Shown piece after piece: positions 6,342 to 7,795 of a DNA stretch of 16,207 bases. A model generated the notes under the pieces. The model was not told the origin of the DNA. It did no database searches and saw only the letters and a program-made list of their open reading frames with translations. Made by a program: the position numbers and the translations under genes. The stretch lies in IMG/VR virus record IMGVR_UViG_643348545_000010; one strand, 5' to 3'. The DNA comes from a virus. Its lineage: Duplodnaviria > Heunggongvirae > Uroviricota > Caudoviricetes. The number at the start of each line of letters is the position of its first letter. The first letter of the stretch is position 1.

Positions 6342-6351
6342 AAAACACTAA

Positions 6352-6369
6352 AGGGGCTTTTAAGCCCCT
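6352..6369 (-). terminator. Hairpin between capsid and protease genes; likely attenuator
   Basis: Perfect stem AGGGGCTT / AAGCCCCT followed on the minus strand by a U-rich tract (UUAGUGUUUUAU). Confidence 0.45.
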
Positions 6370-6380
6370 TCTGTATGCTG

Positions 6381-7538
6381 TTAATCGTCGTCCTGTGGCA
6401 GTTCCAGAATCTTGATCGCGTTCGAATCCACCACGCCACCGCCTAAATATTTCTGCGTGAAAATTTTGATGAAGCCCGGCTCTGTGAGGTTGTCCGGTCT
6501 GGTGCGAACACCTGTTTCGTGATCAACAATGTAGTAACCGCGTTTGAAGTCACCCAGGGCAATAACGTTATCAGGCATAAACTCCAGATATTCGACCGGA
6601 AGGCCCAGCAACGTATCAGGATCACCCGCCTGTAAACGGTCGCGCCAGATGTAATCACCGTTCGCGTTCTTCACCTTCTGAAGTTTTGCCGCCGTCGTGG
6701 AGTTAACCACCCAGACCGCGTTTTTGCGGTATTTTTTACGTAATGCAAATTTCAGGTCGATCAGCGGGTCCGCAGATGTCCACGCCAGAGATTCGGAAGG
6801 TTTAATTACCTGCAACGTACCAAAATCACGCTCTTTGTCGTTCTTCTCTGCACGGGGTACGGATAAAAAGCCTTTTGCTTTTTTGTCACCGTCGCCCACA
6901 ACCAGATCGCTTTCTTCGGTTTCCGTGAAGGTGTCGCCAATCTCGCCCGTCAGCCATGAAAGGATGTCCACATCGGAAAAATCCACGATTTCCTGTGTGG
7001 TGCGCGGGTACGCATAGACCGGATACAGCTTAATGCTCACCTCGTTAATCTGCGGGGTGCTGGTCTGTTCGCGTGCCTTACCCTCTTCACCGTGGTTAAC
7101 GGTCGCACCGCCAGCGGAAACAAGCTGCTTAAACTCGTTGCTGCTGATTTTCTTCACGGTACAGATGCGGCGCATGGTGGATTCATCCGCCAGCATTCGC
7201 ATGATTTCGGTGTTCAGTTCGGGGATAACGGTATAACCACCATCAGCGGGAACGCCTGTACTTAATGCGCGGGTTTCACCCGTCAGAATGTAGTTTCGTA
7301 GTTCTGCGGGGTCAGTGGTCTGACTGCTTTTACCTGGCTTGCTGCGCTCTTCGTCTGCAATGGCTTCAAGGCGGGAAATGTCTTTATCGAGGGATTCAGC
7401 TTTAGCGCGTAATTCGTCAAATTTTGCGCCCTCAGCATCGTTAAGACTGCGGTTTTCTTTTTCAGCGTTCTCCAGCATGTCGCGCATCTGATTTTTAATG
7501 GCGGTTTTCTGCTGGCGCAATTCGATTATTCTCGGCAT
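6381..7538 (-). CDS. Major capsid protein, HK97 fold
   Basis: Start taken at ATG 7538 (MPRIIELRQQ...), giving a coiled-coil N-terminal domain typical of HK97-family capsids. The ORF track extends to 7586, but that extension is the terminator hairpin. Confidence 0.88.
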   Translation of the reverse strand: MPRIIELRQQKTAIKNQMRDMLENAEKENRSLNDAEGAKFDELRAKAESLDKDISRLEAIADEERSKPGKSSQTTDPAELRNYILTGETRALSTGVPADGGYTVIPELNTEIMRMLADESTMRRICTVKKISSNEFKQLVSAGGATVNHGEEGKAREQTSTPQINEVSIKLYPVYAYPRTTQEIVDFSDVDILSWLTGEIGDTFTETEESDLVVGDGDKKAKGFLSVPRAEKNDKERDFGTLQVIKPSESLAWTSADPLIDLKFALRKKYRKNAVWVVNSTTAAKLQKVKNANGDYIWRDRLQAGDPDTLLGLPVEYLEFMPDNVIALGDFKRGYYIVDHETGVRTRPDNLTEPGFIKIFTQKYLGGGVVDSNAIKILELPQDDD

Positions 7539-7575
7539 AAAAAAAGTCCTGGGGTTAAGTAAGGAACTCCAGGAC
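7539..7575 (-). terminator. Intrinsic-terminator-like hairpin plus U7 immediately 5' of the capsid start codon
   Basis: Minus strand: GTCCTGG-(16-nt loop)-CCAGGAC-UUUUUUU-AUG. The 7-bp stem is perfect, 7 U follow, and there are 0 nt between the U-run and the ATG. No SD. Confidence 0.5.
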
Positions 7576-7627
7576 GCGGCAAACACTCAACCGTTTTTCA
7601 TAAGGAAATCAGCAATCGCACCGTTCG

Positions 7628-7675
7628 TTTTCCCGCCTGGTAATGAATATTGGCGAGCACATTAACAGGCGGGAA
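7628..7675. promoter_or_regulatory. 17-bp inverted repeat (16/17 match) with 14-bp spacer in the packaging-operon leader
   Basis: TTTCCCGCCTGTTAATG ... CATTACCAGGCGGGAAA on the minus strand, about 100 bp upstream of the capsid start. Confidence 0.45.
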
Positions 7676-7752
7676 AGTGGCCCCAGCGTCCTGGCACCAC
7701 GGGCGAGAATAATCATGATTCAGTTCGGGTAAAATATGCCGATCCGCTCAGT

Positions 7753-7778
7753 GAACAACGTGGAACAACCACGAACAA
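7753..7778 (-). promoter_or_regulatory. Three phased hexamers (GAACAA on plus = TTGTTC on minus) with 10-bp periodicity upstream of the packaging operon
   Basis: GAACAA-cgtg-GAACAA-ccac-GAACAA; same motif family as 250-276 and 14898-14943. Confidence 0.45.
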
Positions 7779-7795
7779 ATAATTTACAAAAAATA

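Follow-up and report, generated by a model that had tools for sequence, protein, structure and literature searches.

A terminator-like hairpin abutting the capsid start codon of a capsid-forming phage satellite is the last helix of a conserved, folded leader RNA

The IMG/VR record IMGVR_UViG_643348545_000010 (Caudoviricetes; 16,207 nucleotides, the whole of which is called the window below) is a capsid-forming phage-inducible chromosomal island (cf-PICI) of the EcCIEDL933 type, an island also known as CP-933C, Sp7 or O-island 51. All of its genes from int to terL lie on the minus strand. The gene for the HK97-type major capsid protein, the first of the packaging operon, is preceded without any gap by a hairpin and a run of seven T residues (the U7 tract of the transcript). 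The original prediction, made from this sequence, had taken this pair of features for a terminator that leaves the operon dependent on read-through or antitermination from upstream, or for a structure that controls translation. We find that the hairpin, which we name P3, is the last helix of a conserved folded leader RNA of about 160 nucleotides, in which three helices follow one another in the order P1-P2-P3. Coordinates are collected in Table 1.

Table 1. Leader, promoter region and genes of the island (positions in the window)
Feature	Position	Strand	Details
P1, first leader helix	7677-7700	-	GUGGU-G-CCAG-GACG-CUGG-G-GCCAC; -15.6 kcal/mol
P2, long hairpin	7629-7676	-	inverted repeat with 17-nt arms and 1 mismatch; abuts P1; -22.6 kcal/mol
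E. coli-type insert between P2 and P3	7578-7628	-	about 50 nt; from alignments and folds
P3 hairpin	7546-7577	-	5' arm GTCCTGG 7575-7569; 3' arm CCAGGAC 7552-7546
U7 tract	7545-7539	-	directly 3' of the closing G-C pair of P3 and directly 5' of AUG (7538-7536)
Major capsid protein gene, HK97 type	6381-7538	-	385 aa; first of packaging operon; Pfam PF05065, E = 1.7e-61; also annotated by the Prokaryotic Genome Annotation Pipeline (PGAP) in a near-identical island
Packaging module	7538-1198	-	capsid, protease, portal, head closure, connector, HNH, TerS, TerL
Predicted sigma-70-type packaging promoter	7706-7733	-	-35 TTTACC 7733-7728, 16-nt spacer, -10 TATTCT 7711-7706
Upstream regulatory box	7753-7791	-	TTTTGTAAAT (7791-7782) and three TTGTTC repeats; about -91 to -53 from predicted start
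Terminator T2	7792-7821	-	stem AGCCGGA/TCCGGCT, GCAA loop, then TTTTTGTTATTTTTT; hairpin 7819-7802; terminator scan; -12.6 kcal/mol
74-aa open reading frame, phrog_1957	8063-7839	-	function not assigned by PHROGs
Terminator T1	8182-8165	-	canonical; -12.6 kcal/mol
PerC-like protein	8573-8205	-	
SSB	8874-8464	-	
Iterons of the likely origin	~9440-9190		
D5-type primase	11184-9436	-	
DUF4222 protein	11480-11181	-	99 aa, the length reported for RgdR
AlpA	14615-14427	-	62 aa; PF05930
Integrase	16207-14990	-	

On the minus strand the region reads GCG-GTCCTGG-AGTTCCTTACTTAACC-CCAGGAC-TTTTTTT-ATG. The perfect 7-bp stem, the seven U and the immediately following capsid ATG thus lie where they had been described, and there is literally no room for a promoter between the U-run and the start codon. 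Sixteen nucleotides (7568-7553) do separate the two arms, as originally noted, but they do not form an open loop: RNAfold adds three inner pairs (GUU/AAC) past a 1x1 mismatch, which gives a stem of 7+3 bp (the 7 bp with five G-C pairs) and a loop of 8 nucleotides. The calculated energy of P3 is -12.7 kcal/mol, against -12.6 kcal/mol for each of the canonical terminators T1 and T2. We counted perfect 7-bp stems having at least four G-C pairs, a loop of 3-20 nucleotides and T7 directly after: the window has one, and in first-order Markov simulations the motif turned up in 3 of 300 simulated windows, with a mean of 0.013 per window. The terminator scan did not call P3 in the window because of the 1x1 mismatch alone. 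In a natural variant, L095, where CC is changed to TT, the scan calls P3 a terminator with an 11-bp stem and an 8-nucleotide loop. Being as stable as T1 and T2 and followed by a perfect U7, the hairpin is indeed terminator-like: together with the U7 tract it carries every sequence feature of an intrinsic terminator and looks like one, with the predicted end of the transcript at the AUG.

How far is this arrangement shared by related islands? We compared the capsid-upstream regions of five genomes of other genera and 80 IMG/VR contigs, and gathered further contigs of IMG/VR by means of the P1 sequence pattern. The P1 motif is present in 70 of the 85 regions and in more than 120 further contigs. 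Four kinds of leader occur among the relatives: a majority type, the E. coli/Shigella type of the window, short unstructured leaders, and rarer structured ones (L046, L051 and Gilliamella loci). Of 92 unique leaders with the P1-P2-P3 layout, 79 belong to the majority type and 13 to the E. coli type. The majority type consists of P1 (GUGGC-A-CUCA-GACG-UGAG-CC-GCCAC), P2, a C/U-rich linker and a P3 of the form UGGUUUC-A-CGU...ACG-GAAACCA that ends 3-6 nucleotides before the AUG. The E. coli/Shigella type keeps this layout and has in addition an insert, a remodelled P3 and the U7 tract; its insert, replaced in most relatives by a linker of 13-18 nucleotides, includes a GAAAAA tract able to pair with U7. 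P1 and P2 are separated by 0-4 nucleotides. The U-run is absent from all 64 unique majority-type leader ends (115 loci), though the hairpin stays 3-6 nucleotides from the AUG. The position of the hairpin next to the start codon is therefore found in homologous islands, as had been suggested for checking, but the U-run is confined to the E. coli/Shigella lineage, where the U7 region varies by strain (U8 or C+U7 in some).

We examined the helices themselves by counting pairs in 24 diverse leaders, aligned with MAFFT on sequence alone. For P1 and P3 together, 96.3% of the cells are paired and five pairs have changed on both sides, a result matched by none of 500 shuffles; controls in which the helices were slid had 37-60% of cells paired and no pair changed on both sides. 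P1 taken alone has nine pairs, 98.6% paired, with four pairs changed on both sides, and its GACG loop is invariant. In P2 the sequence varies and the structure is kept: the helix is present in 87 of the 92 unique leaders with 38 distinct arm pairs (for example UUUCCCGCCUG, GGCCGUUUAAUC, GUCCACCCGG, GCCGCCUGAC and GCCCGCCCC), and each of its first nine positions shows 3-5 pair types. P2 is called covarying on these arm-pair counts, and P1 and P3 on direct pair counts and per-sequence folds. The 13 unique E. coli-type leaders differ in 27 of 171 columns, with no substitution in the P3 3' arm, in the segments Y and Z described below, or in the P1 partner of Y. As the sequences are related and represent few independent lineages, these figures for conservation and covariation, like those for Y and Z below, are indications and not proof.

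The apical part of P1, Y (CCAGGACGC, 7694-7686), is complementary over 9 bp (-17.1 kcal/mol) to Z (GCGUCCUGG, 7577-7569), which includes the 5' arm of P3. The same relation is found with other sequences in the relatives. Y and Z are AGACGUGA and UCACGUCU in the majority type, where the pairing reaches 12 bp with one bulge and spans the whole 5' arm of P3, and GACGGGA and UCCCGUC in the type represented by L066 and L084. These versions from three lineages share one register in the alignment; seven core pairs of Y:Z are paired in 24 of 24 sequences, and five pairs have changed on both sides. The changes in Y are also compensated within P1, where CUCA/UGAG of the majority type becomes CUCC/GGAG in L066 or CCAG/CUGG in the window. 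The same nucleotides of Y thus remain complementary to two partners, which is the 1:2, 2:3, 3:4 logic of an attenuator: an upstream segment is able to take the 5' arm of the terminator and so exclude it, and this antiterminator segment is itself held in a competing helix, the apical stem of P1.

Calculated energies suggest how the two conformers would compete. Before the 3' arm of P3 is transcribed, the P1 conformer and the Y:Z conformer are isoenergetic (-52.6 vs -53.1 kcal/mol). Once the 3' arm is present, the conformer with P1 and P3 is ahead by about 10 kcal/mol (-63.4 vs -53.7), and this terminator conformer has an equilibrium probability of 0.99. In transcripts that read through from upstream, the terminator conformer would be favoured by 4-10 kcal/mol more before the 3' arm is made, a folding result that depends on the energy model.

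ATG 7538 is confirmed as the capsid start. PGAP gives the same 385-aa start in a genome of 99.5% identity, and the N-termini of the relatives' capsids (MKKLLELRQQ; 66-75% identity) align with MPRIIELRQQ at this codon. An in-frame GTG at 7586 has the support of no homologue and was rejected as a start because homologues and PGAP agree on ATG 7538. The gene had been said to lack a Shine-Dalgarno (SD) sequence. This holds for a strong one, but a weak and well-spaced AGGA (7550-7547) lies 8 nucleotides before the ATG, inside the 3' arm of P3; its pairing with the anti-SD sequence is worth -4.0 kcal/mol, weaker than the -6 to -10 kcal/mol of most island genes. Control of translation by the structure, the other suggestion made originally, is plausible, given that P3 buries this sole SD-like element, and P3 plausibly governs the packaging operon at the level of transcription as well as translation. 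An SD is likewise missing in relatives whose leader is short and unstructured (...AAACACC-ATG), so a weak SD is a trait of the capsid family. The protease gene (ATG 6341) starts in a similar setting: it is directly preceded by a strong hairpin, GAAGGGGCTTAAAAGCCCCTT, with UUUAGUGUUUU (6342-6371, minus strand), and its start is essentially without an SD (-0.1 kcal/mol). Terminator-like hairpins, each abutting the next start codon, thus stand on both sides of the capsid gene and may set the ratio of capsid to protease.

A predicted sigma-70-type promoter lies between T2 and the leader. Its -10 element is 5-6 nucleotides before P1 and the predicted start is at about 7700 +/- 2. In the window this promoter has a score of 8/12, under the threshold of the scan; so weak a score would fit dependence on an activator. 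Among about 60 unique promoter regions of relatives, the same order is conserved: the TTTTGTAAAT box, three TGTTY repeats phased by 10 bp, TTTACN, N16 and TAT(C/G/A)TT. T2 is predicted to end the upstream 74-aa gene and to insulate the packaging module from upstream transcription. In L095 (NZ_AP045172.1, E. coli strain JNEC-KY176, 440-600) the promoter region has been replaced by unrelated DNA that carries TTGCGA-N16-TATAAT (10/12), with the -10 at the same position; homology with the window starts exactly at the first nucleotide of P1, and P3 and U7 are kept. Behind such a near-consensus promoter, a terminator would be needed for silence. Conversely, the relatives with short leaders keep the promoter part and have the leader replaced. 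The predicted start is therefore the joint between two modules, promoter and leader, that behave independently. An 11-nucleotide complementarity between 7714-7704 and capsid codons 2-5 was dropped, since chance alone would give about 0.5 matches of this kind, relatives do not share it, and its position is ahead of the predicted start.

The three TTGTTC repeats of the regulatory box are phased by 10 bp (7778-7773, 7768-7763 and 7758-7753). Phased repeats of this kind are also found at 251-276, near the end of the island, at 13404-13550 and at 14898-14987 between int and alpA, 10 matches in all where 1.7 are expected, a number reached in none of 200 shuffles. The individual sites in the latter two regions are 13404-13419, 13535-13550, 14898-14933 (plus strand) and 14972-14987. 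In L001, whose island is near-identical, the repeats are present at both island ends (1756-1771 and 16869-16894). An island protein, the Vis-like AlpA or else Int through its arm domain, probably binds them. As the repeats are shared with the attachment regions, and as the Sp7 AlpA is described in the literature as an excisionase resembling P4 Vis, the protein that binds the attachment arms probably has sites ahead of the capsid promoter as well, in keeping with the reported finding that overexpression of alpA by itself drives reproduction of EcCIEDL933. The TTGTTC repeats were rejected as iterons of the origin, since the iterons, of the GGTAGAGG type, lie by the primase gene.

From these elements we propose that a conserved cis-regulatory leader RNA heads the capsid/packaging operon and that P3 with U7 serves in it as terminator and sequestor helix, a reading that we hold to be somewhat on the probable side. 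Transcription would begin at the dedicated promoter near 7700, downstream of T2, with initiation probably assisted by an island DNA-binding protein on the phased repeats. The nascent RNA would fold P1 and then P2, and as Z emerges it would meet two possible partners. In the OFF state, Z would pair with CCAGGAC; this would form the intrinsic terminator, bury the weak SD and stop transcription at U7, before the AUG. In the ON state, Z would pair with Y instead and P3 could not form; the polymerase would enter the capsid gene, and AGGA, U7 and AUG would be single-stranded. OFF would be the default because P1 folds first and P3 is thermodynamically favoured, so that the leader probably holds the operon off until the alternative pairing undoes the terminator. 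A factor that opens P1, encoded by the helper or by the island, is the obvious candidate for shifting the balance to ON. In majority-type relatives, with the same leader and pairing and no U-tract, P3 would act on the initiation of translation only, possibly with Rho-dependent polarity. Because the U-tract is specific to one lineage, masking of the ribosome-binding region is the more likely role across the family, and intrinsic termination looks like an addition in the E. coli lineage.

Several points weigh against this proposal. Promoter, start site and U7 termination are sequence-based predictions, and the promoter of the window, at 8/12, escaped the scan. The U-tract is found in a single lineage (at least 94% identity), where its conservation weighs little, and for the same reason intrinsic termination cannot be the function of P3 throughout the family. 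The covariation of P1, P3 and Y:Z rests on essentially three lineages, the majority-type sequences being mostly invariant there. With the terminator conformer at a probability of 0.99, the ON state would need a factor or a kinetic route. Finally, the operon can do without the element, as is seen from relatives whose leaders are short and unstructured.

Could P3 act only after transcription, as a translational operator and mRNA stabiliser, with U7 serving as an SD-independent enhancer that binds ribosomal protein S1 and with no significant termination in vivo? This is less likely, and still deserves serious attention. The 64 of 64 majority-type ends that keep a hairpin 3-6 nucleotides from the AUG with no U-run would be explained at once; the capsid family generally has A/U-rich leaders without an SD, and the protease gene, too, begins right after a hairpin and UUUAGUGUUUU, without an SD. 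On the other hand, a perfect U7 behind a G-C-closed stem matching T1 and T2 is a textbook terminator signal, rare by chance, and the L095 variant satisfies the terminator scan just where silence behind a near-consensus promoter would require a terminator. The original view, in which the operon has no promoter of its own, a polymerase made resistant to termination upstream, by an island factor or by N/Q-type factors of the helper phage, passes T1, T2 and P3-U7, and the leader is incidental, seems to us improbable. It draws on the common strand of int to terL, on the tandem terminator-like hairpins (8182-8165, 7819-7802 and 7575-7546) and on the reported sufficiency of alpA overexpression for EcCIEDL933 reproduction. 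Its claim that the operon may be expressed only from upstream does not fit T2, the regulator repeats and promoter-like element conserved between T2 and the leader, or the exchange of the promoter module as a unit at the P1 boundary. Moreover, searches of the island open reading frames (ORFs) with Pfam and PHROGs gave no protein resembling Q, N or RfaH, the island AlpA being a 62-aa protein of the PF05930 Vis/Xis type, unrelated to the 21Q-like Pseudomonas antiterminator; the conserved alternative pairing is left unexplained, and the folding calculations suggest a still stronger bias to the terminator conformer in transcripts that read through.

The terminated leader of about 160 nucleotides might also be a product in its own right, a small RNA acting in trans and transcribed all the time, like lambda 6S RNA or StxS, both products of early termination at tR'; we consider this quite improbable. 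The predicted 3' end, a hairpin followed by U7, is usual for an Hfq-binding RNA, and the near-consensus promoter of L095 would suit such a transcript. Sy and colleagues (2020) reportedly provide a precedent. A study of Hfq crosslinking in enterohaemorrhagic E. coli (EHEC), however, lists no small RNA from Sp7/CP-933C in its text or supplements, complementarity to targets in the window is at chance level, and majority-type leaders, which have no terminator, cannot give a discrete RNA in this way. Very improbable, finally, is that the features are DNA signals or chance products, that is, inverted repeats bound by a protein or leftovers of module recombination, with no role as RNA. Y and Z are inverted repeats of one CACGTC-type motif, and a protein binding both would produce the same co-variation; the region is moreover a recombination hotspot with several leader types. 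A sequence-specific DNA binder cannot account for the P2 helix, maintained through 38 arm sequences, and the helices all lie on the transcribed strand between the promoter-like element and the AUG; the chance estimate of 0.013 per window also speaks against coincidence.

The kind of device proposed here, a leader that chooses between terminator and antiterminator or between sequestor and anti-sequestor, is well known, whereas this RNA family is new to Rfam and to the literature searched. With Rfam 15, no match at the gathering score was obtained for window positions 7480-7860 or for the L063 leader, the best hits (E at least 0.2) being to unrelated microRNA and snoRNA models. The leader is not described in the literature that we searched on cf-PICIs, PICIs, CP-933C and EHEC small RNAs, and usable published transcript or small-RNA data for Sp7/CP-933C were not found. 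As in attenuators of the trp-leader type and riboswitch platforms, a 5' leader contains three mutually exclusive pairings: the apical stem of P1 would be the anti-antiterminator, Y:Z the antiterminator, and P3 with U7 the terminator before the first gene. The output of the homologous leaders would differ in the way known from riboswitch families, being either a terminator (here the E. coli type) or a helix that sequesters the ribosome-binding site (RBS; the majority type). Differently from those systems, the leader has no known ligand, aptamer or Rfam match, and it controls the morphogenesis operon of a satellite, not a metabolic one. Nor does it have a conserved leader peptide; none was found across leader types. 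A mini-ORF of four codons and a stop, AUG AAA AAC GGU UGA (7601-7587, minus strand), lies in the insert between P2 and P3 (AUG AAA AAG CGU UGA in L025 and L094). It has no SD, is specific to its lineage and is missing from majority-type leaders; 9 nucleotides separate its stop codon from Z, and the 5' arm of P3 follows 11 nucleotides on.

The late control region of lambda, with PR', 6S RNA, tR' and Q (StxS in Shiga toxin phages), offers another parallel: a promoter, an intrinsic terminator within about 160-200 nucleotides, and a structural operon; the L095 promoter, like that of lambda, looks constitutive. The island differs in having no Q-like protein (none with the fold of 21Q, lambda Q or 82Q was found among its ORFs with Pfam and PHROGs) and no recognisable Q-binding element or sigma-dependent pause signal, and in its conserved alternative RNA pairing, a device that lambda does not use. 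A link to the Pseudomonas antiterminator AlpA was rejected, as only the name is shared: the Pseudomonas protein resembles 21Q and its residue numbers run to at least 142, and the AlpA of the island, 62 aa and of the excisionase/Vis type, has no match in PDB to the Pseudomonas AlpA complexes. The put RNAs of phage HK022 form a pair of neighbouring stem-loops where a long phage operon begins, upstream of terminators, and act on the polymerase. P1 and P2, 0-4 nucleotides apart, are similar in layout. Pairing with the terminator is no part of the action of put, and in the present leader the conserved trait is that Y is directly complementary to the 5' arm of the terminator.

Capsid leaders appear to be a hotspot of structural innovation. 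That of L046, about 300 nucleotides ahead of the capsid gene, has a 5' segment (CAUGUAGGU) paired with ACCUACAUG, the latter immediately preceding the AUG. Different structured leaders are also present in L051/L052 and in L006/L056, and the L051 capsid starts with TTG.

The identification of the window as a cf-PICI rests on gene content and order, with Pfam assignments. The literature defines these islands, of about 15 kb, by int, alpA and a primase/rep module together with an HK97-type capsid, protease, portal, connectors, HNH, TerS and TerL, and by the absence of tail and lysis genes, and this is what the window contains. It shares with EcCIEDL933 the gene order (int, alpA, primase, capsid, protease, portal, connectors, HNH, TerS, TerL), the lack of tail and lysis genes, and the site between roxA and phoQ, whose borders are seen in the near-identical island of L001; the published descriptions of EcCIEDL933 that were consulted mention no promoter, terminator or leader ahead of the packaging operon. 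At least 80% of the region is held by 360 E. coli genomes, and O157:H7 genomes contain the leader and its surroundings at 97.7% identity. Among E. coli genomes, T2, the leader and the capsid gene form a block kept at about 98%, and the module upstream of T2 varies. Two identical 23-nucleotide terminator copies (AGCCGGAGCAATCCGGCT and a T-run) at 7798-7820 and 8161-8183 flank the 74-aa ORF, which is missing or replaced in many E. coli islands and looks like a moron-type cassette. In L001, a 37-aa ORF at 9034-9147 (about 8217-8104 in the window), overlapping the end of the PerC-like gene, is labelled "trigger factor" by RefSeq/PGAP, almost certainly an annotation artefact. Dense direct and inverted iterons, GGTAGAGG/CCTCTACC, at 9190-9440, immediately downstream of the primase gene, likely mark the replication origin; ahead of them stands TTTTTATAATTTTTTGTAAAA, similar to the TTTTTTGTAAAT box at the capsid promoter.

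The island also encodes a C4-type antisense RNA (12309-12396, minus strand; Rfam RF01695, 69.1 bits) and a C4 a1/b1 target element (12464-12513, minus strand; RF03163, 46.8 bits), which sit upstream of an Icd-like gene and the primase module. Together they imply an RNA-based immunity control in the style of P1, P7 and P4 in a satellite. The complementarity of the C4 RNA to the capsid leader is at chance level (144 of 300 shuffles were equally good), and this RNA was accordingly discarded as a trans-acting partner. Other complementary partners searched for within the window gave low-complexity or chance-level matches alone. One of these, at 14273-14285, is GGCAUAAAAAAAG in the minus-strand mRNA of a 245-aa ORF, a perfect complement of CUUUUUUUAUGCC (the end of P3, U7 and the capsid AUG); this match of 13 nucleotides is of low complexity (blastn-short E = 0.034) and is probably due to chance.

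Capsid-forming PICIs make their own capsids and take only the tails from their helper phages, and the literature that we searched does not describe how their capsid/packaging operon is switched on at the proper time. The present analysis offers a concrete object for the regulation of cf-PICI capsids: a predicted promoter with phased repeats, copies of which lie at both island ends, followed by a conserved leader. Hundreds of E. coli genomes, those of O157:H7 among them, carry the element, as do more than 100 IMG/VR contigs of related islands, and it would add an RNA family that Rfam lacks. That P1-P2-P3 is a new class of sensor RNA, reading a signal of the helper phage or the host (for example a protein, RNA or small molecule made late in helper infection), is a speculative and rather unlikely extension; if true, the signal would open P1, and Y:Z would relieve termination and unmask the RBS, timing the making of capsids to the supply of helper tails. 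Should the switch answer a helper signal, it would constitute a regulatory link between the satellite and the late functions of its helper.

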